In this document: positions 1,767-55,354 of the stretch, one piece after another
Numbering within the stretch: position 1 is the stretch's first letter
Layout of the letters: each line of letters opens with the position of its first letter
Origin: Bacteroidota bacterium
GTDB taxonomy: Bacteria > Bacteroidota > Ignavibacteria > UBA10030
DNA: 64,000 nucleotides
NCBI GenBank assembly: GCA_049523215.1
Contig: JBEKNC010000003.1
Location: 263,394 to 327,393 of the forward strand
Reading direction: 5' to 3'
Notes under the pieces: model-generated
Seen by the model: only the letters and a program-made list of their open reading frames with translations
What the model was told of the DNA's origin: nothing
Databases searched by the model: none
Translations under genes and position numbers: made by a program

Positions 1767-1921
1767 TTGTTATCGTTATACCCGCGGTTTTTGTAGAGAC
1801 GTCCCCACGATGTTTTCCCTTTTAACCTGCCGTTTGGCCGCTTCTCCATTTCATTCTTCATCCAGAAAAACCAAAGACCGCGCGCTGAAACACGTGCCCT
1901 TTCTCGGATGAGGTGCAATAT

Positions 1922-2755: not shown

Positions 2756-3238
2756 GATAAGCTCCTTTCAACTGGGAACGGCGGCAGCGGATTGGGCTCC
2801 CCCCTTCAAACGATCCCGCCGTAATGCGTGGCCGACGTTACATCTATTGGTTAAAACTGTTCAATTACAGTTACAACAAAAGTAAACCTGAAATTCGTTA
2901 TATGCAAGAAAGACAGCAATTCGTTCCGTATCCAATTTTCAACATCTTTTGTTGCAATAGTCGAATCTGCCATTTTGTAATCGTTTCCCCAGAAATACTT
3001 CTTCCAACGTCTTTGCAGCCGTTAACTTTTTATAAGTAGATCTTCTCGCTCCCAAGCTCTGCTGGGGAGCGTTATTTAAGGAAGCTCTGCTTCCATAAAT
3101 CTTTACCGTTTTGTCTGTACATTAACCAATCAACGGTCTACCTTCAGGTTCTTCCATTATTTAAAGCAGAGCTTCGCCACCTTCCGTTCCCAAACGGAGT
3201 TTGGGAACGAGGGGAAAGCGGGATGGATCGGTACAAAT

Positions 3239-4147
3239 CTATTTTGTACTTTTCACTACACTCATCGCGGTAGCGATCATCGACGAAATATCGCCAAAGT
3301 TCGCCGGAAGAATTAACGTCGTACCCTGCTTTGCAAGATTACCGAATTGTTCCACCAATTTTTCAGCAACGCGTAATTGCACGGCTTCCATTCCGCCTTC
3401 CGACTTAGCTGCCGCTGCAACTGCTTTTACACCGTCTGCGGTTGCATTTGCGACCGCACGGATTGCTTCAGCTTGACCGCTTGCTTCGTTAATTTGTTTC
3501 TGTCGGACCGCTTCAGATTCAAGAACGACCTTCTGTTTCTGCCCTTCGGCAACGTTGATCGCGGACTGTTTTTCTCCTTCTGACTGCAAAATGATCGCCC
3601 GTTTTTCGCGTTCCGCCTGCATCTGTTTTTCCATCGCAATGAGTACAGTCTTCGGAGGGACGATGTTCTTAATTTCGTACCTCAGGATCTTTACGCCCCA
3701 TGTGCGTGATGCCTCATTGATTGCGCTTACGATCGCTGAATTGATCATTGTCCGTTCTTCAAACGTTTTATCCAGGTCGATCTTTCCAACTTCACTGCGC
3801 ATCGTGGTCTGCGACAGCTGCACGATGGAAAACATGTAATTGCTAATGCCATACGACGCCATCTGCGGATCAAACACCTGCACGAAAATCACACCGTCAA
3901 CCCCGACTTGAACGTTGTCCCTGGTGATACAGACCTGCTCAGGAATATCGATCGTCTGTTCTTTCAACGTATGTCTATAGGCGATTTTATCGATGAATGG
4001 AATAATGTAGCTCACTCCCGCATGCAGAGCGATGTGAAATTTACCAAGCCGCTCAACAACATATGCGCTTTGCTGTGGAACAACACGAACGCCGGTCATA
4101 ATTATGATGGCTGCAAGTACGGCGAGGACAATAAAAAATATTTCCAT
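3239..4147 (-). CDS. SPFH/band-7 (stomatin/QmcA-like) membrane protein
   Basis: N-terminal TM helix followed by a typical SPFH core (VVPQQSAYVVERLGKF...) and a C-terminal coiled-coil region rich in A/E/K/Q. Confidence 0.85.
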   Translation of the reverse strand: MEIFFIVLAVLAAIIIMTGVRVVPQQSAYVVERLGKFHIALHAGVSYIIPFIDKIAYRHTLKEQTIDIPEQVCITRDNVQVGVDGVIFVQVFDPQMASYGISNYMFSIVQLSQTTMRSEVGKIDLDKTFEERTMINSAIVSAINEASRTWGVKILRYEIKNIVPPKTVLIAMEKQMQAEREKRAIILQSEGEKQSAINVAEGQKQKVVLESEAVRQKQINEASGQAEAIRAVANATADGVKAVAAAAKSEGGMEAVQLRVAEKLVEQFGNLAKQGTTLILPANFGDISSMIATAMSVVKSTK

Positions 4148-4171
4148 AACAACTCCCTTCTTTTAAGTAGT

Positions 4172-4615
4172 TTATTCGATGAATTTGACTTTCGCCCGAA
4201 TTCCGTCTAATGAAACAATTTCGACTGTGCTCCCTTCGCGTATCGAATTGGTAGATTCACTGAAAGCAATCCATTCCGATCCTCGATAAGAAATCGCGCC
4301 TTCACCGCCGGCTGGAATCGCTTTTACTACCTTAACCCTTTGGCCTTTATAGTCCGGCGGTACATCATGACTGCCAAAGAATAATTTTTTCGCTGTTTTC
4401 CTGAGCACAAACAACAAGAGTAAAGAAGTAATAGAAAAAACTGCAAGCTGGCCGCTTAGTCCAGGCGTGATACCGGCCCAAGTGGTAATTGAGACAATCA
4501 GCGCACCTATTCCAAAGAATGTGAATACGAACGCAAAATGCGTGAGTTCGAGGATGATGAGGACAATTCCTATAATTGCCCAGACAATCACCGGGGACAT
4601 AAATGCTTCAAACAT
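4172..4615 (-). CDS. NfeD-family membrane protein (short form), partner of the stomatin-like protein
   Basis: Three N-terminal TM helices plus a C-terminal OB-fold-like beta domain (GQRVKVVKAIPAGGEGAISYRGSEWIAFSE). It is immediately upstream of, and co-oriented with, the SPFH gene, which is the canonical nfeD-SPFH operon. Confidence 0.7.
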   Translation of the reverse strand: MFEAFMSPVIVWAIIGIVLIILELTHFAFVFTFFGIGALIVSITTWAGITPGLSGQLAVFSITSLLLLFVLRKTAKKLFFGSHDVPPDYKGQRVKVVKAIPAGGEGAISYRGSEWIAFSESTNSIREGSTVEIVSLDGIRAKVKFIE

Positions 4616-4788
4616 GCTGTTAGTTCCTTTCCCTGTTTAGAATGCTTCCGTGTAGAACGTTATCGACGTAAAAAATACGACATTTTAATATCCAACTTGA
4701 CTGAATATAGACTAGTTTTTTAGGAATGGCAAATAGAGGTGGTTGGAATACTCATCGGTACACTCTGGCTTTCTCTAGTCACCATCTA

Positions 4789-4930
4789 CTCCTCCACAAT
4801 CTTTATCTCCAATTGTCATCCCCGTATGCTTCTAACGGGGATCCAGGATAAGGTTCTTATCTCTTGCATTTTAATGTTGACACTGTTTCTGTTCGGGAGA
4901 ACATTTACCGCATACATCTGTAGCCGATTT
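4789..4930. repeat. Composite repeat copy 4: module A plus truncated module C, immediately 3' of the EVE-domain gene
   Basis: ctcctccacaatctttatctccaattgtcatccccgtatgcttctaacggggatccaggataaggttctt...catctgtagccgat matches modules A and C. Confidence 0.8.
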
Positions 4931-4953
4931 GATTCTTTCTGAAAACTTCTTCA

Positions 4954-6063
4954 TCACATCGTCTCCGCCTCTTCGGTGTACTCATCTAGAACTGTGTCTT
5001 TCATGTATTCCAGATGACCTTGCTTGTGTAATTCGATTAACGAATCATAAGAAAGGAAAGTGCATGATTCTACAAGTGGACCCTTTTCCAGCAAGCTGAA
5101 AACAGGTCTGGTAATTTCTTGAAATACTTTTTCTCTTCTTTCTGCTGGTGCTACAATGTGAGCTTTAATGTCAAGGTTAGGTTGTAAGGCAAGTAGATCC
5201 GCCATTCTGAGTATTCCAGAATATATCGATGTCGTATGTTCGACTTCAAAAGCTCTCACGATTGAAGTACGTCGTATCCAAAGCACGTCGATCTGTTCAA
5301 TCGTGCGTAAAGTTGTGTCATCATAATTCATAGGGAGCGACTCTAGCAATGACCCCCCTTGCGGTTTCCATATGTCTAAGACTCGAGACCTATCACTGCG
5401 TGGAACCCATATCTTCATCCCCATTTTTTCGCCAATCTCTGCGAGTAAGGCCTGAATTTGAATGGACTGACGATGTTCTGCAATATCCAGTTTTTGTTCT
5501 TCTATCTCCTCTTCTGGAATTGAAACTGATATTTGCTTATTTAGTGGCGTGCGAATACTATGACCCTGGATCTTCTTTATATCCTCTTCAGAAAGTTCAT
5601 AATTAATGCTATTATGGGTCTGTTCTTTCAATACTCTTTCAAGAAACTCTCCATCATCGTTGTCTAGCTTAAACAGGCTACCTCTCACTCTATTGGTCCA
5701 ACTCTTGTCGTGTTTTGAAAGAGATTTTGTAAAAGAAAGTGTATTCCATACAAGGTCCTCATGGATAGGTACCGCCTTATTTAAATCAAGCCACACATCT
5801 GTTTGAACTTTGAATCTTACTGTGAATGGATCATCTTCAGGAATAAATATTGGTGTATTATCATTAAAACATTTGCTGGTTACTTCAAGAATTCCAACCC
5901 ATCTAGATATTTTTGTTACATAACAGAGAAATTTATCTCCTGGTTTTATCTTATCAGCGGTATTGCGCTGCCTCGGACGGAATCCAGAAATGTCTCTATT
6001 GGATTTGCCAAATGTCTGATATGTCTCTGGTGAAAAAAGATCAATGTAATATGCCATCAACAA
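4954..6063 (-). CDS. EVE (PUA-like) domain protein with a C-terminal uncharacterised, possibly nuclease, domain; candidate modified-DNA reader/restriction component
   Basis: The N-terminal roughly 130 aa (AYYIDLFSPETYQTF...IKPGDKFLCYVTKISRWVGILEVTS) fit the EVE/PUA-like pattern: aromatic residues, GD, Y.....W.G...V. The C-terminal roughly 160 aa (QIDVLWIRRTSIVRAFEVEHTT...) show D/E strand motifs reminiscent of a restriction-endonuclease-like fold. The gene lies directly downstream of the Type IIG gene on the same strand, with a 33-bp gap. Confidence 0.55.
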   Translation of the reverse strand: MLMAYYIDLFSPETYQTFGKSNRDISGFRPRQRNTADKIKPGDKFLCYVTKISRWVGILEVTSKCFNDNTPIFIPEDDPFTVRFKVQTDVWLDLNKAVPIHEDLVWNTLSFTKSLSKHDKSWTNRVRGSLFKLDNDDGEFLERVLKEQTHNSINYELSEEDIKKIQGHSIRTPLNKQISVSIPEEEIEEQKLDIAEHRQSIQIQALLAEIGEKMGMKIWVPRSDRSRVLDIWKPQGGSLLESLPMNYDDTTLRTIEQIDVLWIRRTSIVRAFEVEHTTSIYSGILRMADLLALQPNLDIKAHIVAPAERREKVFQEITRPVFSLLEKGPLVESCTFLSYDSLIELHKQGHLEYMKDTVLDEYTEEAETM

Positions 6064-6096
6064 GCCTCTTTGGTTTCACTAATCCTGGAACAGTTA

Positions 6097-9000
6097 TTAA
6101 GAATTCTTATTTTCTACTTTCCCCTCCACAATCTTTATCTCTTCCTCCGTCAACTCGTACAATTTATACACGATATCATCTATCTTTTTATCTGTGGCGG
6201 CGATTTGACGCTCGACGGGCTCTTTCTCACTGTCAAAATGGGATTTCTGCAATTGCTTGTTGAGTTCCAACATTTTCTCCACGAGCGACACGAGGTCATC
6301 GTGCATTTTCTTTTCGATGGGATTATTAAAATCGATGGCGCGGATAGGAAGTCTTTTAGCATTTTGAATTAATATTTTCTGAAAAACTTCTTTTGATTGA
6401 TCCAAATACTTATGCTTATGGTAAAAATTTATCAATTTGGAATTCAGAATTCCAAGAATATATTTAAGGCTACATTCAGCATCGTTTTTTAACAAAAGAT
6501 TGAAGGCTATTTGAGCATTATATAGCTCCTCCTCGGTGTAGCCGGCATAAATTCTGAGAGGCGAGCCACTTACAATTTGTCTCACTAATATTCGTGGTTC
6601 AGAAAAAAACCTCTGCTCTCTTGGTGCACCTAACCAATCACCGTAACTAATCCATTCTTTCCTACCCCAATCAACTAAGTAACGACTTATATCTTCACCG
6701 GAAAGAATTTTCTTAAAGGTTTTGTCCTTCTTTTTTGTTGAATGAAAGACTCTCTTTTCAATTTGTGCTTGTGTATGTCCTTTGTATTTGTCATATGGCG
6801 TCAAGCCAAGAGAAAAACCACAAACCGCTTCAAGATCGCGACCTATTTTTGACATTTTGTCTATTAAATGCAAAGCATCTGCATTAGAGAAAATATTGAA
6901 AGTACTATAGTCCTCGTTGCTCCAACTCTTTTGATTTATAAAACTATGTTTAAGTGCCTTATCGAAATCTATATGTCCGAGTCTTTCTGTCCGGTCAAAA
7001 ATAATTATTTCACATTTATCGTCATTTAGTACTTTTCTAATGGCAATCGTCAAAACAATAGTTTCCGCAACGACATTCTCAAAAACGCCATCGGGCAACC
7101 TTACAATTTGTTCAACCGCTGCATCTGTTAAGATTTTCTTCCTAAGTTTTGAATATGTGCTTTGAGTTAATATTGAATTAGGTATAATATAACCGAACCT
7201 GCCCTTGTTTTTTATTATACTAAGTGCTCTCTCAATAAATACCGCATACACATTCATCCTGTTTTCGGTTGTTTTGTACTTTTTAAAATAGTAATCAACC
7301 AAAGAAGGATCCAACCCTTTAATATCGATCCATGGCGGATTCCCAATTACCACATCGAAGCCGCCAGTCTTCATAATCTCAGAAAACTCTATTTCCCAGT
7401 CGAATGGGTTTACTTTGTGCCTCGCTTCTTCATCGAACATTTCTCCCTGTGAAGTAAAATCCGTGCCGATAAGTGAATTGCCGCATTTAATATTCTTCGC
7501 GAGCGACGGCAGGTACACTTCTTTTAATGCAAGCGTCATTTGCGGGTTCAGCGTTTCGGCATTTTCTCCTTCAAGCACTTTGAGATACAGCGACATCTGC
7601 GTTACTTCCACCGCCTGCCGATCAATATCCACACCGTAAATATTGTTTACTAAAATATCCCGCTTCTTGCGCGGGGAGAGATGGTAATTGCCGTCTGCGT
7701 CTTTGTAAGAATCAGGGACATTGTTTTCTGTTTTAATATCTTCAGGGTGCGCGGTGTACCATTCAATGTGGTAATCGATCAGTGTCTGGAATGCGCCGAG
7801 CAGGAACGATCCGCTTCCGCAAGCGATGTCGATGATCTTTAATTTTGAAACTTGTTTTGGTGAGAGCCTAAGTCGTTTGATTTCTGTAGCCGACGTCGCT
7901 GACGTCGGTTCTTCCTTTTTCCCGCGATCATCGATCGCGGCTACAATTTTTTCCTCATACAACAATTTACCCAGCGTATTATCCACAATATACTTGACGA
8001 TGTACTGCGGCGTGTAATACACTCCGCCTGCCTTCCGCACTTCCGGCTTTTCTTTTATTATTACATTTTTTGGCGCAAGATGAATTGTCTTGCCGAGGAA
8101 TTTTTCATAAATGCTGCCGAGTATCTCCACGCCGATCTCATTGAAGTGATATGGCGAGAACGGATAATTCAAGTTCTCTAAAATCTTAATCAACACTTCA
8201 TCGCCAACTTCCAACTCTTCGCATTGATGCTGACTAAAGAGCAGCCCATTATACAATGCGCGCCGCTGTTTGAATAAATCATTCAACAGCGAATACAACG
8301 ACAGACCGCGGCGTTCTTTCCACATCCGCAAGATGGCAAGCAGTGTATTTTCAACTTCTATTTCCCTGTCTTCGCACACGCGAATGAAGACGATGCGGTC
8401 AAGAATGCGCTGGACCGCTTCGTTGAGCGTATAATCATTCAGGAACCGACGGTTCTTCGGATGTTTTGCAATATCTCGCGCCAACTCTTCGCGCCATTTA
8501 GATAAATCTTCCAAAAATTCACGGTCGAGTGCAAAGTCGCCGGTGCGCTTCAACATCATCTTTTTTGTCAGCGCTTCCAGGGAACCACCTGCGACAGCAT
8601 CGCGCGAGAATGTATCGAAGAGACGTTCGAATTGATCTAAGTAATGCTTATACGTCAGATCGAAATCTTTGATGATGCCTAATTTCGGTTTCTCAAACGC
8701 AGGTCGCTGGGTGCAATCGAATGTGCGGAATTCTTCAAAGTCTGTAAGTATCGCAAGCGGCACGCGCCCGGAAAATCCGTACCGTTTTACCTGAAAGATC
8801 GCCGATTGGCTTTTTACAAGATCGACGTAGGGCTTTTTTGCTTCAACAAAGAATTTTGTTTGCCCGCCAATGCGAAATCGGTAATCCGGTTTTTTAACTG
8901 CCTCTTTAGAATTGGCTTTGTATTCATCCTCGGCAATATAATCCAGAATGGAAGCGTACTCTTTATACTCTTTGCCAAGAGTTTCTTTTTTCGGAAAGAG

Positions 9001-39754: not shown

Positions 39755-40467
39755 TTTATATTTCTCATGATCGAAAGTTCACCGAACGGCTGCAACTGGC
39801 GGATGATAAGTTTTTTTGAGCGGATGACTTCGAGCAAAGCAATGAATGTTACGATAATGCGAACTCTTTCTGTAAAGTCTTTCACCATTTCATAGAATGT
39901 TGCCTCTGAACGCCGTGAGAAGAAATCTTCAATATAGGCAATCTGTTCCTCGACAGTGACATTGATCTTTTCAATTTCGTGAATAAACTTCTTCGGCATC
40001 CTATCCATTGCAAATTTAAATGATGCAATAAGGTCAAAGAATGTCACATCACGAATCAAATCTTCGCCTGTCTCTTCTTCTACCGCATGTTCGTCGGCAG
40101 AATGATATCCGCGGTAACATACTTTCATTTGTTCATCTTCACGCCTCTTCATCTCCACCGACATTTCTTTAAAGCGCTTGTATTCCACCAACCGTTGTAC
40201 CAAATAAGCGCGCGGGTCTGCTTCTTCTTCTTCGCCCGGTTCCGGTGGAAGAAGTAATCTGACCTTAATTTGCATCAGTTCAGCCGCCATAACTAAGAAT
40301 TCACCTGCAATTTCTAAATCGAGTTGTTGCATGTAATGGAGATATTCTAAAAATTCCTTCGTGATTCGAGCAATTGGAATGTCGTAGATATCCAATTCAT
40401 CCCGCTTGATGAAGAAAAGCAAAAGATCCAGCGGACCTTCAAAGTCAAGGAGTTTAATCGTATACAT
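39751..40467 (-). CDS. scpA: Segregation and condensation protein A
   Basis: ScpA signature FEGPLDLLLFFIKRDELDIYDIPIA. It overlaps scpB by 4 bp. Confidence 0.85.
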   Translation of the reverse strand: MYTIKLLDFEGPLDLLLFFIKRDELDIYDIPIARITKEFLEYLHYMQQLDLEIAGEFLVMAAELMQIKVRLLLPPEPGEEEEADPRAYLVQRLVEYKRFKEMSVEMKRREDEQMKVCYRGYHSADEHAVEEETGEDLIRDVTFFDLIASFKFAMDRMPKKFIHEIEKINVTVEEQIAYIEDFFSRRSEATFYEMVKDFTERVRIIVTFIALLEVIRSKKLIIRQLQPFGELSIMRNIN

Positions 40468-40469
40468 AG

Positions 40470-41453
40470 TTACCCGAGCTTCATTGCTTCATGAACTTCA
40501 GCCATTGTCTGTTTCGCGATTGCTTTGGCTCGCTGTTCACCGTCTGCAAGAATATTTTTTACTATATCTATATGCGATTCATAATAGGCGCGCTTTTCAC
40601 GGTTTGGTGCCAGTGTGTCGATAATTTTTTTTGCACAGTTCATCTTGCAATCCACGCATCCGAGTTTTCCGCTTTCACAATTGGCGCGAATCTCCGGCAC
40701 TTCTATCGGATTAAATTTATTATGGTACGCAAACACCAAGCACACATCCGGATGTCCCGGATCACCTTTTCGTATTTTCTGCGGATCCGTGACTGCGGTT
40801 TTCAATTTCTTTGTGATTGCTTCCGGTACATCCGATAGCAATATCGTATTGCCAATTGATTTGCTCATTCGTTTACCATCGAGCCCGGGTAGACGTGCAA
40901 ACTTTGTGATCTTCCCCTCTGGTTCCGGAAATACTGGTGCGTATTGGGCATTGAAACGCCTTGCAATCTCGCGTGTAATTTCGATATGCGGTAATTGGTC
41001 TTCACCTACAGGAACAAGATCGCCTTTGTAGAGCAAAATATCCGCAGCCTGCAACACCGGATACCCAAGATGTCCATAGACTACGCTGTCTATCTCGAGA
41101 TCGCGAATTTGTTCCTTCAGAGTCGGGTTCCGCTCAAGACGTGCCGTTGTGATGAGCATCGAGAAAATCAAATGTAATTCAGCATGTTCTTTGATCTGTG
41201 ATTGTCTGAACATCGGACTTTGCTCAGGTTCAAGTCCGGCGGCAAGCCAATCGATGAGCATATCGATGGAATTATCGTAAATTTCAGAAGTATCTGGATT
41301 TGTTGTCAGCGCATGATAATCTGCGATGAGATGATAATTTTGGTATTCACCCTGCAATGCAACCCAGTTTTCGAGAGCGCCTGTAAGATGACCAAGATGC
41401 AGTTTGCCTGTAGGGCGCATTCCGCTCAGGATAATTTTTTTCTTCTGACTCAA
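40470..41453 (-). CDS. trpS: Tryptophan--tRNA ligase
   Basis: Class I HIGH-like (TGKLHLGH) and KMSKS motifs. Confidence 0.9.
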   Translation of the reverse strand: MSQKKKIILSGMRPTGKLHLGHLTGALENWVALQGEYQNYHLIADYHALTTNPDTSEIYDNSIDMLIDWLAAGLEPEQSPMFRQSQIKEHAELHLIFSMLITTARLERNPTLKEQIRDLEIDSVVYGHLGYPVLQAADILLYKGDLVPVGEDQLPHIEITREIARRFNAQYAPVFPEPEGKITKFARLPGLDGKRMSKSIGNTILLSDVPEAITKKLKTAVTDPQKIRKGDPGHPDVCLVFAYHNKFNPIEVPEIRANCESGKLGCVDCKMNCAKKIIDTLAPNREKRAYYESHIDIVKNILADGEQRAKAIAKQTMAEVHEAMKLG

Positions 41454-41556
41454 AAGAACAAGAGACTCCTTTTGATGAAACAGTAAACAGTTTTCAGTTG
41501 TCAGTAATCAGAAAAATTAAATTGATAACTGACGACTGAGGACTGATAACTAACAA

Positions 41557-42045
41557 CTAATTCATAAACAAATACGGCTTCCAATGGTCATCCACAGTGC
41601 CGACGAAATGGCGGATAAACATCACGTGGTTGGGACGAATCGGTCTGCGGAGGAGAGTCATCTGTGATTCATGCAAAGTTCTGTCTCCTTTTTTGTTGTT
41701 ACAAGAGACACACGCTGCCACCAGATTTTCCCACGAATCTGGGCCGCCCTTCGCTCTTGGGATAATATGATCCACGGTGAGCATGGTGTCAGTTCTCCCG
41801 CAATATTGACAACTATGTCCATCGCGGCGCAAAATATTCTTGCGTGAGAGGACAATCTTTTTATAAGGGACGCGAACGAAAACACAGAGGCGAACTATGC
41901 TTGGATAGGGCATCGTCAAATAGACAGAATGCAATTTTTTTCCATCGCACGCCGCAATCAACTCAGCTTTGCCTAAATACAAGAGGATGACAGCTTTCTT
42001 GACATTACAGATGCTTAATGGCTCATAATTATGATTGAGCACCAA
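41557..42045 (-). CDS. HNH endonuclease family protein
   Basis: CxxC...H...N...CxxC pattern: CQYCGRTDTMLTVDHIIPRAKGG...WENLVAACVSCNNKK. Confidence 0.8.
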   Translation of the reverse strand: MVLNHNYEPLSICNVKKAVILLYLGKAELIAACDGKKLHSVYLTMPYPSIVRLCVFVRVPYKKIVLSRKNILRRDGHSCQYCGRTDTMLTVDHIIPRAKGGPDSWENLVAACVSCNNKKGDRTLHESQMTLLRRPIRPNHVMFIRHFVGTVDDHWKPYLFMN

Positions 42046-42265
42046 TACTTTTCGGCTTAGTTTTATGCTTGTACCGATGGTTTCTGCGAATATACTGAAG
42101 ACCTATGCACCTCCTTTTGACCAATTGAGCTGTTAGCTCATATCTTTCTTGAGGTATTTCGTTCTTTCCATTGAAAATATAGCATATTCCACAGCCAGAG
42201 TCAAGATTAGAATGGATTTGAGATTGTAGAGATATGAGGAATAAACTATCTCAGACCAAGGTTCG

Positions 42266-42365
42266 GGGTATTCTATCTGTTTTTCTGGATTCTCGATTAG
42301 CTGGAAAGCTGATAATGTATTACGCTTCGCGTGATTCAATTCTACGCCTCCGGCTGGGAATGATA
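42266..42365. repeat. Roughly 100-bp repeat, second copy at 57413-57508 (about 88 percent identity, same orientation)
   Basis: ggtattctatctgtttttctggattctcgattagctggaaagctgataatgtattacgcttcgcgtgattcaattctacgcctccggctgggaatga compared with the 57413 copy. Confidence 0.75.
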
Positions 42366-42455
42366 GTACTTTCTTTTTTATCCACTTGTCATATTCGGCA
42401 CACAACACCTTGTCATTCCCGCACCTAAAGTTAAAAGATGCCCGCAGTTACTTAG

Positions 42456-42932
42456 TTAGGCTATACGCTTGCCAAAAATTTTCAAACTTCTTTCCACACC
42501 GTCTAATGAAGCAATATTGGGAAGTGTTGCCCAGACTTCAAAGCCAAAACGTTTAAATAATTTTATACTTGGTTCATTATGGGCAAAAATATATCCCAGG
42601 ATTGTCTTCACACCAAATTTTGGAGCTTCATCTATTGCATGGCGCAGCACCTGCTTACCCAATCCTTTGCTTCTGTGCACAACGTCCAGATAAATACTTA
42701 GCTCGATAGTCGCATCATACGCCGGCCTGCCGTAGAACGATTGAAAACTGACCCAACCGATGATTTCACTATTTTTGTTTTCGACAACCCATAAAGGACG
42801 TTTATTGGGAGTGTGTTCATGAAACCATCGTATTCTGCTTTCTACTGAGATAGGTTCTGTGTCGGCAGTGCCAGCCCTGTCTGCGCTGATGGTATTTTTC
42901 TTTCTATACGAAACGCTCTCACCGACGGGCAT
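42456..42932 (-). CDS. GNAT N-acetyltransferase, phosphinothricin-acetyltransferase-like, with a replaced, non-canonical N-terminus
   Basis: PAT-family core (…WVVENKNSEIIGWVSFQSF...LGKQVLRHAIDEAPKFGVKTILGYIFAHNEPSIKLFKRFGFEVW). The first roughly 24 residues are unrelated to the canonical N-terminus, which is found in the fragment at 51184-51290. Confidence 0.8.
   Translation of the reverse strand: MPVGESVSYRKKNTISADRAGTADTEPISVESRIRWFHEHTPNKRPLWVVENKNSEIIGWVSFQSFYGRPAYDATIELSIYLDVVHRSKGLGKQVLRHAIDEAPKFGVKTILGYIFAHNEPSIKLFKRFGFEVWATLPNIASLDGVERSLKIFGKRIA
42699..42870. repeat. 172-bp direct repeat (copy A) internal to the GNAT gene; copy B at 51012-51183 (3 mismatches)
   Basis: Direct alignment of tagctcgatagtcgcatcatacgccggcctgccgtagaacg...gataggttctgtgtcggcagtg at both sites. 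Confidence 0.9.
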
Positions 42933-42993
42933 TTATGAAATGATTATCATGTTCACTGCCAACTGTGTGGATTTTATTTCGCGAATGGCTCTA

Positions 42994-45714
42994 TTATGAC
43001 TGGCTATTGTCGGAGCTTGTGCCGCGGTGGCCGGAGTTAGAATTCTCTTTCTTCGGTAAATCTGTCGGGAGATGTTGAGATAAAATCGTCCCGCGTTTAT
43101 CTTTGATTTTTGACAGATAGCCTCCATACAGCTTTTCTGCACATGTCGGACAAACACCATGGCTGAAGGTTGCTTCAGAATGCTCATTAATGTATTGTTC
43201 CAGTTGATTCCAGTACCCTTTATCATCGCGTATTTTTTTACAGTTCGCGCATATCGGAATGAGACCATTGAGTACTTTGATCTTCGACATTGCTTCTTCA
43301 ACATTTACTTTCAGTATTTTTTCCCGCACTATGAGGCGCCACACGCGAAGTCGATGTATACCAAGACCCGATAGGATAGCCACAATTACCATAAGGCCAC
43401 GAAACCAATTCGTCTGATAGAAATACGCAGCGATATTCAATTCCAATGCTGCGCCTTTCCAATTCCATACACCGTCGTTATTGCATGCAATGACCTTGAA
43501 TGTATATTTCCCATGAGGAATATGGGTGTAAGATGCCACGCGTCGTGTGCCAGCATCAATCCAATCTTTGTCATAACCAGCAAGCATATATTTGAAGCTT
43601 ATCAGCTGGGGTGCTGCATAACTCAGTGCGGTATAGTGAAACTCTAGTTCGCCTTGCCCCGGTCCTACTTGTATCAAACTATCAATAGCTACTTCCTCGT
43701 TGTTGACAAAAGCGTGCTCTATAAACACAGGCGGAATAAGTGTGCTCTGTCCGGCTGTTGCAGGGTCTATGATTACTACACCATTGAGTGTTGGGATCCA
43801 AAGTTTCCCATCATACGTGCGAATCCCCGCAGGCTGCGAACTTCCATTACATTTTGTGCTTATCATACCGTTATCTTTACCAAACACTGTACAATGGATT
43901 TTTTGGATCTTCCCCTCAGTAAAATCATTAAGCTCTTTCTTGTTGACACGGAAGACCCCCCGATTGCTCGTCATCCAGAGATTATTTTGCTCATCCGGAA
44001 GAATTTGGAATACACCGTTATTGTACAGACCGTCTTTCGTGGTATATGAGTTGAAGCGGCCATCTTTGAATCTACTTAGACCACCACCAAATGTGCCAAT
44101 CCAGAGAATATTGTTTTCGTCCTCGAAGAGAGAAAAAACTTCGTTGTATGCAAGCCCGTCTTTTGCGGAATACCGTGTCAGCTTCCCGTCTTTGAATCTG
44201 TGTAATCCGTTATCGGAACAGATCCATAAATTTCCATCGTGGGTCTCCAGAATAGTCCGGATACCATTACTCCCCAAACCATCCTTAGTTGTATACGTTG
44301 TGAACTTGCCATTCTTCAATGTATTGAAACCACCAAGTGTGCCGATCCAAAGAGTATGATCCCTGCTCAGGAAGAGGCTATATATAAAGTTATTTGCCAA
44401 TCCGTTTTTTGTTGTCCATGTGGTAAACTTGCCGTTTTTCAACCGGCATAAACCCTGATCAGAAGTTCCAATCCACAATGAACCGTCCACATCTTCGCAG
44501 AGTGCACGTATACTATTGGAAGGGAGACCATCCTTCATGGTGAACGTTTTCACCGATCCGTTCTTGAAACGAGATAAACCTCCGCCGATTGTTCCCACCC
44601 ATACAGAGCTATCGGATGTTTGGTAGATAGGTCGTACCTCGTTATTTCTCAACCCTTCTTTATCCGTGTAGACTGTGAACCTCCCGGGACGGAAACAATT
44701 CAGTCCGTTATTCAATGTACCGACCCAAAGATTTCCTTCAATATCTTCAAAGAATGCCTTCACAAATTTACCACTCAACACATCATCGGAGGTGTACGCA
44801 CAGATATGGTTATCCCGGATGCGGTTGAGACCTCCATTGGTTCCGATCCATAAGTTGCCGTCACGATCTTTGTAGATGCTTCGCACCCAATTGTTTGCCA
44901 AACCATCTTTGGTTGTGAATGTCGTCCATTTCCCATTCTTGAGTTGGCTGAGACCGGCGTTGGTGGCAACCCATAAAACATTGTCAATATTTTGGCACAC
45001 AGATGTGATAGTGTTGCTGGCAAGTCCGTTGGCGGTAGTATAGGTGGAAAAGACTCCATCCTTGAATCTACTCAACCCGGCAGTAGTCGAACCGATGTAG
45101 ATGCTTCCGTCGATCCCCCCGCTCACGCATGTTAAGTAATTACTGGAAAGGCCATCTTTTGTAGTGTAGTTTGTAAATTTCTCTTCCTTCCACACACTTA
45201 ATCCTTCGTACAGGGTCGTAATCCAGAGCCTTCCTTCAGCATCTTCAAAGAGATCTGTTACATAATTATTTGCAAGTCCATCTGCCCTTGTATAAGTGAT
45301 GAATTTTCCATTTCGTATTCGTGTGAGGCCATCCTGGGTTCCTATCCACAGGCTTCCGTCGGTAGATTGAATGAGTGCTTCAATGCCATTGTACCTGAGT
45401 CCTGCTGTTGTGCTTCTATCAAAAACAGTAAACTGTACTCCATCGAATCGGATAAGTCCTTCTTGTGTTCCGAGCCAAAGATAACCGTCACGTGTCTGTG
45501 TGATGCACTGTACCAAATCCTGCGGCAATCCATCTTCCTGTTTCCACACTAAATGGCTATACTGAATAGTGGTCTTTGTCGGGTCAAGCGCAAAGGAAGA
45601 TGGAGTCACAGCAAGCTGGACAAGCAGGAACCCGACAAGAATGTTCAATGCAATATTTTTCACCTCTCTAGTACTACAACTCTGAGAGTTTATCATACGA
45701 ATATTCGCATTCAT
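42994..45714 (-). CDS. Transmembrane sensor: signal peptide, double beta-propeller (two-component regulator propeller repeats), Y_Y_Y domain, TM helix, short cytoplasmic coiled coil and a C-terminal Cys4/His zinc-ribbon-like module; no kinase domain
   Basis: At least 14 Reg_prop-like repeats (G.LW.GT..GL..). Y_Y_Y region (GELEFHYTALSYAAPQLISFKYMLAGYDKDW...YTFKVIACNNDGVWN). TM helix WFRGLMVIVAILSGLGI. C-terminus LIPICANCKKIRDDKGYWNQLEQYINEHSEATFSHGVCPTCAEKLY. Confidence 0.8.
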   Translation of the reverse strand: MNANIRMINSQSCSTREVKNIALNILVGFLLVQLAVTPSSFALDPTKTTIQYSHLVWKQEDGLPQDLVQCITQTRDGYLWLGTQEGLIRFDGVQFTVFDRSTTAGLRYNGIEALIQSTDGSLWIGTQDGLTRIRNGKFITYTRADGLANNYVTDLFEDAEGRLWITTLYEGLSVWKEEKFTNYTTKDGLSSNYLTCVSGGIDGSIYIGSTTAGLSRFKDGVFSTYTTANGLASNTITSVCQNIDNVLWVATNAGLSQLKNGKWTTFTTKDGLANNWVRSIYKDRDGNLWIGTNGGLNRIRDNHICAYTSDDVLSGKFVKAFFEDIEGNLWVGTLNNGLNCFRPGRFTVYTDKEGLRNNEVRPIYQTSDSSVWVGTIGGGLSRFKNGSVKTFTMKDGLPSNSIRALCEDVDGSLWIGTSDQGLCRLKNGKFTTWTTKNGLANNFIYSLFLSRDHTLWIGTLGGFNTLKNGKFTTYTTKDGLGSNGIRTILETHDGNLWICSDNGLHRFKDGKLTRYSAKDGLAYNEVFSLFEDENNILWIGTFGGGLSRFKDGRFNSYTTKDGLYNNGVFQILPDEQNNLWMTSNRGVFRVNKKELNDFTEGKIQKIHCTVFGKDNGMISTKCNGSSQPAGIRTYDGKLWIPTLNGVVIIDPATAGQSTLIPPVFIEHAFVNNEEVAIDSLIQVGPGQGELEFHYTALSYAAPQLISFKYMLAGYDKDWIDAGTRRVASYTHIPHGKYTFKVIACNNDGVWNWKGAALELNIAAYFYQTNWFRGLMVIVAILSGLGIHRLRVWRLIVREKILKVNVEEAMSKIKVLNGLIPICANCKKIRDDKGYWNQLEQYINEHSEATFSHGVCPTCAEKLYGGYLSKIKDKRGTILSQHLPTDLPKKENSNSGHRGTSSDNSQS

Positions 45715-45876: not shown

Positions 45877-48800
45877 TTAGCAACTTTCATCTAATACTTT
45901 CCGGATTATCTGTAGAATTTCATCAATCATATAAGGCTTCTGAATAAAACCGCGAGCCCCAGCTTTTAGGAGTTCAGATTTAACATTCGGATCAAAAAAA
46001 CCACTGGCAAAAATTACTTTTACATTCGAATTAATCTCTTTGAGTCTCTTAAATTCCTCCATACCACTAATTCCCGGAAGGCCAAGATCAGTGATGACAA
46101 GGGCAATTTTCTGTTTATGCTGTGAGTACATATCGATCCCTTCAAGACCGTCATTTGCCGTATAGACAGTATATCCTTTGAATTCGAGAAATGGACATGC
46201 GGTATCTCTTAGAAGTTCTTCATCCTCTACAAACAGAATGGTCTCTGTACCGCCAACCGAAAAAGATTTATTCGGTGTTTGCACATCCATTATGTTATCA
46301 CCGGGAGTTGAAACCGGGAAATAAAGGTGAAACGTAGTTCCAATGCCCAGTTTGCTTTCTACGCTAATGAAACCTTGATGTGCTTGCATAACACCGTAGA
46401 CAACAGACAATCCCATCCCCGTTCCTTTTCCTAACGGCTTTGTTGTGAAAAACGGATCAAATATCCTTTGTCGGGTTGCTTCATCCATTCCTTCGCCAGT
46501 ATCACTCACACTGATACTCACATATGAATCTTGATCGGCAGAAGCAAATTGTGCTCGAACGTATTCTTTAAGATGTTTCTCCACTTTCATTGAAATTGTT
46601 CCGCCATTGGGCATGGCATCCCTCGCATTAACACAAAGGTTCAATAATGCCTGATGAATCTGTATGCGATCGGCAGAGATGTATGGAATGTTCTTATCAA
46701 AAGTCTCTGTAAAGATGATGAGCTTGGAAAAGGTTTGTTTGAGCATCGACAGAATTTCGTGCACGAGTTCGGTAATATCTATCGGCTCGAATGAAATTTC
46801 GGTCTTTCGTGCGAATGTCAAAATTTGACGCACCAGCGCTGCTCCGCGCTGAATTGTTTGCGTAACAGCCGATAGACTCTCGATAAATTTCTGATCATCT
46901 GATCTTTGTTTACTCAGCAACGAAGTGTACCCGAGCATAATGCCGAGAATATTATTGAAGTCGTGCGCAATACCGCCGGCAAGCGTGCCGATACTTTGCA
47001 TTTTTTGCGATTGGAGCAACTCTTGTTGGAGTTTTTTTTGCTCAGTAATGTCTCGACTAATGCCGACAAGACCAACGATCTTCCCTTGTTCATCTCGCAA
47101 AGGCAACTTGGATGTAAGCATCCAATGTTTTTTTCCTTCCTTATCGAGAAAGAATTCCTCCTTATTGATGAGCGGTGTATTAGTCTGAATGACCGACTGA
47201 TCCTCATTATGGAAATCTGTTGCTATGTCTTTTGGGAAAAAATCAAAATTGGTTTTTCCTAAAACTTCTGCTTCTGACTGTGCTCCCATGTTATGAAAAT
47301 CTGTGATATTCGCTATGGTGATACGGCAATCAGTATCTTTGACATAGATACCATCCGGAATATTATCAATCAATATCCGGAATAAATTGCGTTCTTTTGC
47401 CAGCGTTTCCTCTACTGCTCGGCGTTCAAAGACGTGCTGTTCCAGTTGTTTCTCTCTCTTTACAAATTGCCGCACACGCCGGCGATATACACCAAATCCG
47501 GTGCTGATTATAACCACCAGCACAAGACCATAGAACCACAATGTTTGGTAGAAATGCGGTTCAAGTTCGAACGCAAAGCTTGCTCCGGTTTCATTCCACA
47601 CACCATCGCTATTGCATGCCGTGACACGAAAGACGTATTCCCTTGGCGGTAAGTTCGTATAAAACGCTTCGTGCCGTGTTCCCACCGATCTCCATTCCTT
47701 ATCAAATCCCTCCAATTTATAACGGAAATTCACTTTCTGCGGTGTAGTGAAACTCAATCCTCCATAGTGAAATTCTACCTGACCGTTGCCGGGCGCGAAA
47801 TGTCCGTACTCATATGGAGAATAATCTACCCTATCCATCACCACTCGTTCAATCACGACAGGCGGTGGAAGATTGCTTTTCTGTAATTGCTTTGGATCTA
47901 CAACGACAATACCTCCGGCGGTGGAAAACCAGAGACGGCCGTCAGAAGTCTTACACGCAGTTGATTGCCCATTACTGGAACAAACATCATTCAACATGCC
48001 ATCAGAATATGTATATGCTGTATGTTGAATACGATCAATTTTACCATCCGCAAAATCGTTGAGAATTTGTTTGCTGACACGACTGATACCATTGATATGG
48101 CTCATCCAAAGATATCCAAGATCATCCTCAAGGATTTCATACACTGCATCATTATAGAGACCATGTTTGCGGGTGAATCGAGTGAATTTACCATCCTTCA
48201 CTCGTACAAGCCCACCGCCATAACTTCCCATCCAAAGAATATGTTCACGATCTTCCATCATACCATAGATGGGTTCAACCGGCAATCCATCTTTTTGTGT
48301 ATATGTTGTTACAGATCCATTTTGCCATCGCATGACCGCCTCATTCCCTCCAATCCACATGGCGCCGCTGTGGTCAACGAGAATAGACCGGATCACATTC
48401 ATCGGTAATCCTTTATCCCGATAATTCACAAATCTTCCATTTTCTAATCGATGAATTCCACCGTTGAGCGTCCCTACCCATAAATATCCTTGGTGATCTT
48501 CTCCAATTGCGCGAATGTAGACATCTGTCAATCCATCCTTCGCAGTATACGCATGGAAAATACCATTACGAAATTCTGTGAGACCTATTTCCGTACCAAT
48601 CCATATGGTACCATGAGAATCCTCAAAAAATGAACGAACATTATTACTCGGAAGAATATTCTTTATGTGACAGACCATGAACTTCTTCCCGTCGAAACGT
48701 ACTACGCCAGCACAACCGATCCACATATCCCCATTATGTGCTTGCATGATAGACCCGGTACCAACGCTGGGTAATCCTTCACGTTCAGTGTAATTGAGAA

Positions 48801-49803
48801 ACTTCCCCTTCCAGAATTGATCCAATCCAGTATTGTAGTTGCCAACCCATAAAGTCCCTTCACGATCTTCTAATATGGAAACTACTACATCACCCGAGAG
48901 ACCATCGGAAGAACGAAATGGCATGAAGACACCAGAAGCAAACTGACAAATACCACCTCCTTCAGTTCCAATCCACAACTCTCTTGAACGATCTTCATAG
49001 ATTGCCCGAATCCTATTATTAGAAAGTCCGTCATCTGTTGTAAATGTGTGAAGTGAGCCTTTCCTCCACCTGACGAGACCTCCCGACGTACCAATCCACA
49101 TAGTGCTGTCAGATGCTTTATAAATACTTCTCACCGTTTCATGCGGTAATCCATTTTTACTCGTATAGTACGACCATCGGCCATGACGATACACGCTTAC
49201 ACCTGCATTTGTTCCTACCCAAATGTTACCTTGATGATCTTCTGCAATTGCATACACTACGTTACTGGAAAGACCTTGTGCAGTAGTGATGGATTCTGTT
49301 TTCCCATCTTTGTACTTGCGAAGCCCGGCATTCATCGTGCCTATCCAACAATTTCCCTCATGGTCTATTGCCAGCGCCCGAATGACTTCAAGTCCTCCAG
49401 TCGTGTTTGTTGGATGATACGTGAAGATACCGTTCTTGAGACTGGTAAGTCCATTGTACGTTCCAATCCAAAGCGTTCCATCGGAAGACTCAATCAACGC
49501 TGTAATGTCATTGTGCTTTAGCGCAGGCGTGTTGTCTTTATCAAACACTTGAAAGATGGATCCATTGAAGCGAACGAGACCATCTTGTGTGGCAATCCAG
49601 AGATATCCGTCTTGTGTCTGAACAAGTGCCCGACCGGAATTATGCGGCAATCCATCTTTGTTCGTCCATATTTTATGGATATACTGCCTCAGTGGTGTTT
49701 TTTGTTGTTCTTGTGCAAGAGAGCCGGGACATACAAACAAACAGGTGAGGAGAAACAATAGCAACCATCGCAATCGATGTATTGTATTCATGAAAGGCAG
49801 CAC
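45877..49803 (-). CDS. Hybrid sensor histidine kinase: double beta-propeller, Y_Y_Y, TM, PAS, HisKA, HATPase_c and receiver
   Basis: Same periplasmic architecture as the neighbouring gene. The cytoplasmic part has PAS, H-box GIAHDFNNIL, N/G boxes (DTGEGMD, GTGMGLS) and REC (ILFVEDEE...VITDLGLPGISG). Confidence 0.9.
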   Translation of the reverse strand: MLPFMNTIHRLRWLLLFLLTCLFVCPGSLAQEQQKTPLRQYIHKIWTNKDGLPHNSGRALVQTQDGYLWIATQDGLVRFNGSIFQVFDKDNTPALKHNDITALIESSDGTLWIGTYNGLTSLKNGIFTYHPTNTTGGLEVIRALAIDHEGNCWIGTMNAGLRKYKDGKTESITTAQGLSSNVVYAIAEDHQGNIWVGTNAGVSVYRHGRWSYYTSKNGLPHETVRSIYKASDSTMWIGTSGGLVRWRKGSLHTFTTDDGLSNNRIRAIYEDRSRELWIGTEGGGICQFASGVFMPFRSSDGLSGDVVVSILEDREGTLWVGNYNTGLDQFWKGKFLNYTEREGLPSVGTGSIMQAHNGDMWIGCAGVVRFDGKKFMVCHIKNILPSNNVRSFFEDSHGTIWIGTEIGLTEFRNGIFHAYTAKDGLTDVYIRAIGEDHQGYLWVGTLNGGIHRLENGRFVNYRDKGLPMNVIRSILVDHSGAMWIGGNEAVMRWQNGSVTTYTQKDGLPVEPIYGMMEDREHILWMGSYGGGLVRVKDGKFTRFTRKHGLYNDAVYEILEDDLGYLWMSHINGISRVSKQILNDFADGKIDRIQHTAYTYSDGMLNDVCSSNGQSTACKTSDGRLWFSTAGGIVVVDPKQLQKSNLPPPVVIERVVMDRVDYSPYEYGHFAPGNGQVEFHYGGLSFTTPQKVNFRYKLEGFDKEWRSVGTRHEAFYTNLPPREYVFRVTACNSDGVWNETGASFAFELEPHFYQTLWFYGLVLVVIISTGFGVYRRRVRQFVKREKQLEQHVFERRAVEETLAKERNLFRILIDNIPDGIYVKDTDCRITIANITDFHNMGAQSEAEVLGKTNFDFFPKDIATDFHNEDQSVIQTNTPLINKEEFFLDKEGKKHWMLTSKLPLRDEQGKIVGLVGISRDITEQKKLQQELLQSQKMQSIGTLAGGIAHDFNNILGIMLGYTSLLSKQRSDDQKFIESLSAVTQTIQRGAALVRQILTFARKTEISFEPIDITELVHEILSMLKQTFSKLIIFTETFDKNIPYISADRIQIHQALLNLCVNARDAMPNGGTISMKVEKHLKEYVRAQFASADQDSYVSISVSDTGEGMDEATRQRIFDPFFTTKPLGKGTGMGLSVVYGVMQAHQGFISVESKLGIGTTFHLYFPVSTPGDNIMDVQTPNKSFSVGGTETILFVEDEELLRDTACPFLEFKGYTVYTANDGLEGIDMYSQHKQKIALVITDLGLPGISGMEEFKRLKEINSNVKVIFASGFFDPNVKSELLKAGARGFIQKPYMIDEILQIIRKVLDESC

Positions 49804-49904: not shown

Positions 49905-51011
49905 TAAGAATGTCAGGTTTGCGTATGTTAGAAGTCCTCAAAAGAGAAATGACTTCTGGAATGGGACAAACCATAACAATGAGCATATAAGAGAAATGGA
50001 AACCCGATTGAAAATGATAGTACGGAACAAAGAAGGCAAAATCATCGTGTTAGAAGCAGCCGAGAGCATACATCTCAGCGAGCGGCAGATGTATCGTGTG
50101 TTAGCCCGCTATCGGACACAGGCAGAAGCAGGACTGGTGCATCGACTCCGCGGGGCACGAGTTCTCATCGAGGATATTCGGAAGAGAACGCGGAAGAAAG
50201 TATTTCGATTGTTCCGAGAGCAGTATTCAGATTATGATCCAACGCTGTTTTCCGAGAAGTGAGAGGAATATCACGCTTTGCGCATTTCACGGCAAACGCT
50301 CACTCGGTGGTTGGTCAAGGAAAGTCTCTGGGCGCCCAGACGCAAGAAGCGAACGGTGTCAGACAATGGGCTCACTCATTCAATTCGACGGTAGTGATCA
50401 CGATTGGTTTGAGGGACGTGGTCCGGCGCGGTGTTGTTTGTTGGTTGCCATTGACGATGCCTCGGGAAGTGTGATGCTGCGTTTTACCAAGGAAGAAGAT
50501 ACGGCAAGCGTCCCCTTTTGAGTTCTGACATAGATACATTCAACACAGAGGCATTCCTGCAGAAATCTACACAGATGGCGGTACGATCTATTTTGACACC
50601 AAAAATCCTAAACGTTTGACGCAGTTTGGCTGTGTTCTTAAAGCACTGGGCATTCATCATATCCATGCCTATTCTCCTCAGGCAAAGGAGCGGGTGAAAC
50701 GATCCAATCGAACGTATCAAGATCACCTGTTGAAGGCGTTACGCGAACAGGGCATTTCCAGCATCAAAGATGCAAATCGGTTTTTAGAGGAACTCTACTG
50801 TACTCAACACAATATGCGTTTTGCACAGTGCGAAGGACTTTCAGACATTCACCGCCCTGCTAATGGGATTGATCTCGACAACATCTTTTGCTTCGAAGAT
50901 ACTCGGAAGGTGTATAACAACTATACCATTACTCTGCACAGTCAGTTTATTCAGTTACTTCGCTCAGAAGCACCTCTGCCGCCTCCGCGCTCTACGCTGC
51001 TCCTGCGGCAA
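49905..51011 (+). mobile_element. Degraded IS, IS1202 (ISNCY)-like; DDE transposase split over three frames and truncated at the 3' end
   Basis: The ORFs 49996-50262, 50234-50521 and 50616-51014 together resemble one rve-type transposase: HTH ...LSERQMYRVLARYRTQAEAGLVHRLRGAR, then ...QFDGSDHDWFEGRGP..LLVAIDDASG, then ...HAYSPQAKERVKRSNRTYQDHL. The family call is from memory of ISNCY/IS1202 transposases. Confidence 0.65.
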
Positions 51012-51290
51012 TAGCTCGATAGTCGCATCATACGCCGGCCTGCCGTAGAACGATTGAAAACTGACCCAACCGATGATTTCACTATTTTTGTTTTCGACAA
51101 CTTATAAAGGACGTTTGTTGGGAGTGTGTTCATGAAACCATCGTATTCTGCTTTCTACTGAGATAGGTTCTGTGTCGGCAGTGACCATCCTTGAAGAGAT
51201 TGTCGAATTATATATCTCGACAATCCTTTCCAGGTCTTGAAGATTTGCGTCTCTATATATAAGTTCATCTATAGCTGTAATTGTCTTCAC
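51012..51290 (-). pseudogene. GNAT (PAT-like) gene fragment: canonical N-terminus plus the 172-bp repeat, with a premature stop
   Basis: [62 protein letters not shown]. It is identical to gene 42456-42932 over the repeat except for a ccc to ctt change that creates the stop. It ends at the IS junction. Confidence 0.8.
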
Positions 51291-54694: not shown

Positions 54695-55354
54695 TCACTT
54701 AAGCAGAACAAGTTTCCTGGTGTCTGTAAATGACCCGGTTTGTAGCCTATAAAAATATACTCCGCTCGGCATCGATGCAGCATTCCATATCTTCGAGTAA
54801 CTGCCGGCCGCCATATTTTCACTCACTATAGTCGCCACCTCCTGTCCTACCAGATTGTACACCTTTATCGAAACATAGGTTTGAAATGGAATATCAAACG
54901 AGACCGTTGTTGTTGGGTTGAACGGATTCGGATAATTCTGCTTCAGCCCGAAAGCATCGGGTCGGAAAGAAATCCGATCATTCTCAATACCGGTGGCTGC
55001 GGACGCAGTGAACGATCCTGTCATCCCCGCCGAAAAATGGAAGTCGCATTGATAGAGATACATGCCCGCAACTGCGACAGGATACGTAAATACGCTACCG
55101 GAAGCCTGATGAAAGCTTTGTGCACCGGCGGGAACACTCGTGGAACTCAGCGGATGCATACTAAAATCACCCTCCCACTTGACCGTGTCCCCTACGAAAA
55201 CATTCAGAGAATTGGGCGAATAAGTAAGTCCAAACGAACCCCCGAACTGGATGACATGGGTTGTGGCATGCGCTGTAGTCGCAACTGCGAGTAACATTAC
55301 TACCCACACAATCGATGTCGTTCTCTGAAATACCAAGATGGATTGTTTTTTCAT
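54695..55354 (-). CDS. Type-1 copper (cupredoxin/plastocyanin-like) protein with T9SS C-terminal sorting domain
   Basis: Signal peptide, copper ligand cluster YLYQCDFHFSAGM (C..H....M) and a C-terminal approximately 80 aa Por-secretion CTD (NYPNPFNPTTTVSFDI...VYNLVGQEVATIV...GVYFYRLQ). Confidence 0.75.
   Translation of the reverse strand: MKKQSILVFQRTTSIVWVVMLLAVATTAHATTHVIQFGGSFGLTYSPNSLNVFVGDTVKWEGDFSMHPLSSTSVPAGAQSFHQASGSVFTYPVAVAGMYLYQCDFHFSAGMTGSFTASAATGIENDRISFRPDAFGLKQNYPNPFNPTTTVSFDIPFQTYVSIKVYNLVGQEVATIVSENMAAGSYSKIWNAASMPSGVYFYRLQTGSFTDTRKLVLLK

Follow-up and report, generated by a model that had tools for sequence, protein, structure and literature searches.

A kinase-less propeller sensor of Bacteroidota ends in a widespread, undescribed Cys4 output domain

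The window analysed here, a stretch of 64,000 nucleotides on contig JBEKNC010000003.1 of a Bacteroidota metagenome-assembled genome (MAG), carries the gene for a large membrane sensor (Table 1) that is deposited at NCBI as MGA3286700.1 under the name 'two-component regulator propeller domain-containing protein'. We find that this gene encodes an intact type-I membrane sensor and that its product joins a sensor scaffold of the classical type to an output domain that has not been described, a signalling helix followed by a small module with four cysteines. The unit of helix and module measures about 70 residues, of which the Cys4 part takes up about 47, and it is a widespread autonomous signal-output domain, not the product of a truncation. 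The explanation that we favour, tentatively, is that this domain acts on one common conserved partner shared by the many sensors that carry it.

Pfam places 11 Reg_prop stretches in the protein (E 3e-62), and hydropathy indicates a periplasmic sensor followed by one transmembrane (TM) helix and about 120 cytoplasmic residues (aa 787-906), more than the 100 or so estimated in an initial annotation made from the letters alone. The sensor architecture given there, Reg_prop propellers with Y_Y_Y and a single TM helix, agrees with both analyses, and its statement that HisKA, HATPase, REC and AraC are missing held as well: HisKA, HATPase_c, Response_reg, PAS, HTH and AraC gave no Pfam match in the protein even at E<=1. 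The Bacteroides hybrid two-component systems (HTCS) of the BT4663 type (Reg_prop/Y_Y_Y-TM-HisKA-HATPase-REC-AraC) have in common with it the double propeller with Y_Y_Y, the single TM helix, the helical exit and their occurrence in Bacteroidota, whereas in its cytoplasmic part the helix is followed by nothing but the 47-aa Cys4 module and a tail. Because the three defining domains were tested and are absent, the protein is neither an HTCS nor a kinase; formally it is a one-component-type sensor, with input and output in one chain and without phosphotransfer domains (no HisKA or REC). The cytoplasmic part contains ICANCKKIRDDKGYWNQLEQYINEHSEATFSHGVCPTCAEKLY, with the cysteines C822, C825, C855 and C858, and its module reads G-L-I-P-I-C822-A-N-C825-K-K-I-R-D-D-K-G-Y-W...F-S-H852-G-V-C855-P-T-C858-A-E-K-L-Y, which follows the general form G-L-I-P-I-C-x2-C-K-K-I-R-D-D-x-G-Y-W...F-S-H-G-x-C-P-x-C...Y. 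At 0.43, the GC content of the module region is the same as that of the remainder of the gene.

A family profile built from 50 module sequences and run against 1.84 billion representatives at 50% identity matched 24,831 of them at E<=1e-3 and 20,519 at E<=1e-10, which puts the motif far beyond chance, and 4,024 at E<=1e-30. The family extends over at least 12 phyla, and a survey of one genome per species yielded at least 598 confirmed module loci. Those represented among the loci listed are Bacteroidota, Ignavibacteriota, Calditrichota, Desulfobacterota/Thermodesulfobacteriota, Nitrospirota, Nitrospinota, Acidobacteriota, Spirochaetota, Verrucomicrobiota, Hydrogenedentota, Poribacteria, Marinimicrobia and others; many of the host lineages are anaerobes or microaerophiles, and the family also includes aerobes (Nitrospira, Chitinophagaceae). 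Plasmids gave one match, a remnant disrupted by an insertion sequence (IS), and viral contigs gave 3 in 2.9 million; with the module nearly absent from both, we rejected the idea of a mobile-element feature. The sole plasmid match is an unannotated stretch at 6001-6135 of locus L081 (Dongshaea marina plasmid NZ_CP028898.1), where an IS21 insertion separates the remnant from an upstream GAF-domain gene and an IS91 transposase follows downstream.

Within the family the module is strikingly uniform. The spacing between the two CxxC pairs is 29 residues in 342/342 modules, and every residue of the signature L-x-G-x-[LI]-P-I-C-x2-C-K-K-I-R-D-D-x-G-Y-W...F-[ST]-H-G-x-C-P-x-C is present in the window protein. 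In 332 unique cores, about 25 of the 46 positions reach a conservation of 85% or more (P, I, C, C, K, K, I, R, D, D, G, Y, W, E, Y, H, S, A, F, S, H, C, P, C and Y), and the net charge averages -0.44, individual cores lying between -5 and +4. The motif initially noted, CxxC...H..H..CxxC, stood in its four cysteines (100% in 330 unique homologous cores) and in the histidine of the SHG triplet (H852, 95%), whereas the first histidine, H845, is kept in only 87%. The closest relative is locus L001 (Bacteroidota MAG SPRUCE 214, from the SPRUCE peat site). Its module shares 94% identity with that of the window protein, and 11 of the codon differences are synonymous and 3 non-synonymous; for the periplasmic sensor the identity is 75.5%, and the counts are 134 synonymous and 177 non-synonymous, so the module is selected much more tightly than the sensor. 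Tandem and multiple paralogues carry near-identical modules.

The position of the module in its host proteins is that of an output. It starts 45-78 residues before the stop codon in 84 of 85 proteins from genome loci (the exception, L001, has an in-frame stop), ends a median of 15 residues from the C-terminus, and is almost always C-terminal and the sole non-sensor domain. Accompanying domains were counted in two censuses, one of these 85 proteins and an independent one of 125 metagenome representatives. The former holds PAS (29), REC (16), Reg_prop with Y_Y_Y (12), HAMP (4), SBP_bac_3 (3) and Tll0287-like (3) domains, with Cache and GAF also present; the latter holds PAS (76), REC (11), GAF (7), HAMP (5), MASE6 (5), HisKA_7TM (1) and cNMP_binding (1). 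Multi-TM sensors also precede the module. GGDEF, EAL and HTH are not among the families listed in either census, nor is HATPase in that of 125, and the sole kinase case among the 85 is L065 (4296-8180, 1295 aa), an HTCS-like chain of Reg_prop/Y_Y_Y-HisKA-HATPase-REC-helix-module that ends in the module, not in AraC, with the module in the AraC slot of Bacteroides HTCS.

Proteins composed of REC, helix and module are 200-236 aa long and keep the phospho-acceptor D57 together with T87 and K109 in 11/11 cases; their genes lie directly downstream of a histidine kinase gene in 5/12, the kinase being a hybrid in 3. These proteins are ordinary response regulators with the module as their only output. 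Other arrangements include propeller-Y_Y_Y-PAS-PAS-module (L078) and minimal forms in which a TM anchor, or nothing, precedes helix and module, and tandem or fused module paralogues are common (L004, L009, L078, L079, P0121-P0131). The module takes the place that HisKA-HATPase, GGDEF or HTH occupies in other sensors and response regulators, and its inputs come from sensors in the membrane or the cytosol as well as from REC domains. The initial annotation had described the C-terminal motif as a conserved but functionally undescribed module of some large sensors; this is borne out by its presence in the output position of many sensors and also behind REC. Some database proteins hold two full sensor-helix-module units (P0124, 1405 aa), either as true fusions or as read-through gene calls.

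The helix that leads into the module is of constant length. Across 274 sequences the stretch of 21 residues that precedes the module does not vary in length and carries a clean heptad pattern, with a/d positions at -21, -17, -14, -10, -7 and -3 relative to C822. Where propeller, TM helix and module are linked directly, exactly 56 residues separate the pre-TM aromatic motif (FYQTxWF) from P-I-C in 11/13 linkers, a set that includes the window protein and the GC-rich, distant double protein P0124. The first gene of L009, which escaped the regular-expression count, appears by eye to have a 56-residue linker as well, and that of L052 has 91 residues, equal to 56 plus five heptads (56+35). A fixed-length linker is a signature of outputs governed by the geometry of a dimeric signalling helix, such as DHp, GGDEF and cyclase domains. 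Fixed-length helical coupling and small size make the module attractive as a minimal system for studying how a signal is transmitted across the membrane.

None of the libraries searched has a named family for the module, or a solved structure or known function. The profile search of the C-terminal region that the initial annotation had proposed returned no match for the last 148 aa in Pfam-A 2025 or NCBIfam (June 2026); PHROGs and PADLOC likewise held no match for the module, and neither Pfam rubredoxin nor ZAS matched the window protein even at E<=1. PDB sequences gave no match with either a single sequence or a 105-sequence profile, and the PDB searched by fold left the module without a match, including among solved DNA-binding zinc domains; the rubredoxin fold was also unmatched. 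The zinc ribbon that the initial annotation had envisaged is not supported; the test for this fold, two beta-hairpin zinc knuckles in a three-stranded ribbon with similarity to known zinc-ribbon families, came out negative. A homology search seeded with divergent members recovered just more consensus-like members, with no new architecture or name, and the literature on module motif strings (CKKIRDD, FSHGICP and others) and on zinc-finger output domains contained nothing relevant except HalOD2. The best PDB hits, to a membrane protein (E 0.09) and to a hairpin of glutamate dehydrogenase, IRRDDGSWEVIEGYRAQHS (E ~0.6), were treated as chance. In the latter, aa 828-846 of the module (IRDDKGYW..E.Y...HS) align weakly with the N-terminal hairpin of glutamate dehydrogenases at chance level (E ~0.6-1), an alignment which suggests that the KKIRDD.G.W segment may form a beta-hairpin.

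How such an output might work can be outlined from the architecture. The periplasmic double propeller and Y_Y_Y are joined through one TM helix and a continuous, fixed-length heptad helix to the Cys4 module in a protein that is presumably dimeric, and the four cysteines would hold a structural metal ion, most likely zinc. A periplasmic ligand, perhaps a glycan by analogy with Bacteroides HTCS, would shift the register or tilt of the two helices and so alter the relative position of the two modules, and this repositioning would switch the binding or release of one conserved cytoplasmic partner, which may be a protein or else a small ligand that bears phosphate. The invariant KKIRDD.G.W patch would bind this shared partner, and many different sensors per cell would converge on the same downstream target. 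We favour a single shared partner because nearly the same module recurs in paralogues of one locus and across phyla, with neutral charge and few variable positions; the constant register of the helix likewise speaks for it over sequence-specific DNA binding.

Several points weigh against this explanation. When 959 neighbouring proteins from 81 loci were clustered all-against-all, no conserved non-signalling neighbour emerged, the commonest neighbour families being generic (ABC ATPase, AMP-ligase, SDR) and present at 7 of the 81 loci at most. An output without a local partner gene also fits a DNA-binding regulator, and L065 puts the module in the slot of the DNA-binding AraC domain. The conservation figures come from the best-scoring family members and are somewhat overstated, and metal binding, dimerisation and a conformational switch of the module are properties that we infer.

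DNA binding is the main rival, and we consider it unlikely. The module would then be a small metal finger for DNA or RNA, the window protein a membrane-tethered one-component transcription factor like ToxR/CadC or like the AraC end of HTCS, and the REC-module proteins ordinary DNA-binding response regulators. Most outputs of response regulators and one-component systems do bind DNA, and besides L065, where the module stands exactly where HTCS have AraC, and the 81 neighbourhoods without a conserved partner gene, a dimeric coiled coil would offer two modules to a palindrome. The module also has a local basic cluster (K826, K827, R829, K832, K861), and the archaeal HalOD2 output, a helix with two CXXC motifs, is predicted to bind DNA or RNA (PMC5847659). 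Against these considerations, the net charge of the module is close to zero, its near-invariance leaves few positions in which differing DNA specificities could be encoded, it resembles no solved DNA-binding zinc domain by sequence profile or fold, and no polysaccharide utilization locus (PUL) or other obvious target operon lies beside the window gene. It is the mean charge, together with the near-invariance across paralogues and phyla, that leads us not to favour the DNA binding entertained in the initial annotation.

The two remaining readings in which the gene is intact are weaker. In the first, which we regard as improbable, the window protein is an accessory or decoy co-sensor that heterodimerises with the adjacent hybrid kinase through propeller, TM helix and signalling helix and thereby modulates what the kinase puts out, its Cys4 module serving mainly as a stable dimerisation cap. 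This would be the 'branched pathway' of the initial annotation reduced to its minimum. The neighbouring gene was initially described as a paralogue with PAS-HK-REC output, which Pfam and an overall identity of 41% confirm; this identity (aa 36-815 against aa 24-807) sets in where the propeller begins and extends over the TM helix into the first part of the cytoplasmic helix, beyond which the two proteins diverge. The genes are same-strand neighbours separated by a gap of 162 nt without a terminator-like site, the arrangement is kept in L001, and a kinase lies within two genes of about 16/77 module genes. The module is, however, no less conserved where it sits on cytosolic PAS and REC proteins, or on propeller sensors which, like most propeller-module genes, have no kinase beside them (L004, L006, L009, L018, L052). 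A mere cap would not need the invariant KKIRDD.G.W surface, and 41% identity seems low for heterodimerising paralogues. The neighbouring kinase may be functionally linked to the window sensor, and the 'branched pathway' initially proposed for the two is only a suggestion.

In the second, which we hold to be more improbable still, the Cys4(His) site is itself a sensor, either a redox- or metal-labile zinc-thiolate switch of the kind found in Hsp33 and RsrA or a rubredoxin-type iron site, at which the C-P-x-C knuckle hints, and would provide many sensors with an extra cytoplasmic input. The arrangement CxxC...CPxC with a 95% conserved histidine three residues before the third cysteine would suit such a role, as would the many anaerobic or microaerophilic host lineages, and no fold match assigns the site a purely structural role. 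PAS-module and REC-module proteins would, however, be left with no output at all, the family extends to the aerobes named above, and the searches for rubredoxin and ZAS were empty. Finally, a truncated or decayed histidine kinase gene whose C-terminal motif arose by chance or frameshift, for which the full kinase next door and the in-frame stop within the module of the L001 orthologue might speak, is refuted: tblastn of 40000-43400 with the PAS-HisKA-HATPase-REC region of the neighbour, a point on which the initial annotation could have been refuted, found no kinase remnant downstream in any frame, the module family comprises over 20,000 clusters and is strongly held by purifying selection, codon constraint is evident on the module, and in L001 the kinase gene is frameshifted too while the sequence past the stop is conserved, a pattern that speaks for assembly error or a very recent event.

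Returning to the favoured explanation of one shared partner, parallels for the proposed mode of working exist in the STAS domains of YtvA/RsbR (stressosome) and in chemoreceptor tips (CheA/CheW), which likewise combine a sensor, a helical linker and a small output, would resemble the module in an output far more conserved than the sensor, and place the same output on many paralogues. They have no sequence or fold relationship to the module, and the analogy concerns the presumed way of working. The nearest counterpart in the literature is HalOD2, a response-regulator output of halobacteria in which a helical part is combined with a pair of CXXC motifs spaced by 20-25 residues (PMC5847659). Both are REC-associated, consist of a helix followed by a predicted Cys4 finger and are functionally uncharacterised, whereas HalOD2 is reported in only a few halobacteria with a spacing of 20-25 and the module is bacterial, very large in number and spaced at 29.

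The CxxC-X29-CxxC spacing itself led in the literature to papillomavirus E6/E7 and to the tetracysteine motif of EpsE/GspE, the ATPase of type II secretion and type IV pili (PMC5061722), alone; both are unrelated to the module by sequence and fold. Their zinc sites are structural and support protein-protein contacts, and we take the identical spacing as coincidence because neither surfaces in sequence or fold searches. With zinc ribbons, rubredoxin and treble clefs the module has two CxxC knuckles in common; the second has the form C-P-x-C, as in rubredoxin, and in the AlphaFold2 (AF2) model it is predicted to open a helix, as in treble clefs. With rubredoxin the C-P-x-C knuckle is all that is shared, as there is no Pfam or structural match.

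There is a substantial chance that the module is a new output class in its own right. The wider claim, that it forms a hitherto undescribed class of signal output that spans phyla and numbers over 20,000 clusters, interchangeable on membrane, PAS/GAF and REC inputs and connecting dozens of inputs per cell to one conserved target, is quite possible, short of being likely. If true, it would amount to a pathway parallel to phosphorelay, cyclic di-GMP and chemotaxis that was overlooked because model Proteobacteria and Firmicutes lack it, and an output with a common target would add a new class to both two-component and one-component signalling. Proteins with the module are now annotated merely as 'PAS domain S-box protein', 'response regulator' or 'propeller domain-containing protein', and because censuses of signal transduction classify by output domain and these annotations omit the module, its output is invisible to them. 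Should there be one common target, its discovery would reveal what tens of thousands of sensors do in phyla that dominate their environments (Desulfobacterota, Nitrospirota, Acidobacteriota, Bacteroidota and Spirochaetota).

Table 1. Layout of the sensor gene and its upstream paralogue (window coordinates; residue numbers refer to the sensor protein)
Feature	Position	Strand	Basis
Whole sensor gene, 906 aa	42994..45714	-	Open reading frame listing and Pfam
N-terminal hydrophobic segment, aa 18-43 (signal peptide or first membrane anchor)	45586..45663	-	Hydropathy scan
Periplasmic sensor, aa 44-767: Reg_prop repeats (double beta-propeller) and Y_Y_Y	43414..45585	-	Pfam
Y_Y_Y domain, aa 699-761	43432-43620	-	Pfam, E 2e-15
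TM helix, aa 768-786, followed by the positively charged stretch HRLRVWR	43357..43413	-	Hydropathy
Juxtamembrane signalling helix, aa 787-815	43270..43356	-	Family-wide heptad pattern
Conserved Cys4(His) module, aa 816-865	43120..43269	-	Homologue alignment; AF2 predicted local distance difference test (pLDDT) ~86
Variable low-complexity tail, aa 866-906 (41 residues), with an LPTDLPKKE motif common to close relatives	42997..43119	-	
Upstream paralogue, hybrid histidine kinase Reg_prop/Y_Y_Y-TM-PAS-HisKA-HATPase-REC	45877..49803	-	Pfam

The tails of P0005, P0006, P0016 and P0034 end in a similar LP.D.PKE, which may be a short linear motif of a subfamily.

The gene pair of sensor and kinase is found again in L001 at 86-94% nucleotide identity. 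There, at 8001-8228, an in-frame stop replaces Tyr834 (DDKG*WNQ), and at 1600-5437 the kinase orthologue is split over three reading frames by several frameshifts. Because the sequence past the stop is still conserved, this damage is probably an assembly error or a very recent change or decay of the locus. A sigma-70 promoter scan of the region between the two genes in the window is uninformative for Bacteroidota.

On the other side of the sensor gene, a GNAT acetyltransferase gene (42456-42932, -) starts 62 nt downstream on the same strand, and an HNH endonuclease gene (41557-42045, -) also lies downstream on that strand; neither was found to have a functional link with the sensor. Housekeeping genes (ScpA/ScpB, TrpRS, pseudouridine synthase) surround the locus, a pirin gene is also present, and no PUL, SusC/SusD or glycoside-hydrolase gene occurs near the window gene. 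Directly upstream of the kinase, three short consecutive open reading frames in different frames (49996-51014, +) look like a frameshifted, decayed IS element; the first matches HTH_23/HTH_28, and the third (YSPQAKERVKRSNRTYQD...) appears by eye to be the C-terminal part of a DDE integrase core. Further along, a 219-aa protein (54695-55354, -) combines a plastocyanin-like copper-binding region with a type IX secretion C-terminal sorting domain, which is consistent with an origin of the window in Bacteroidota (FCB group).

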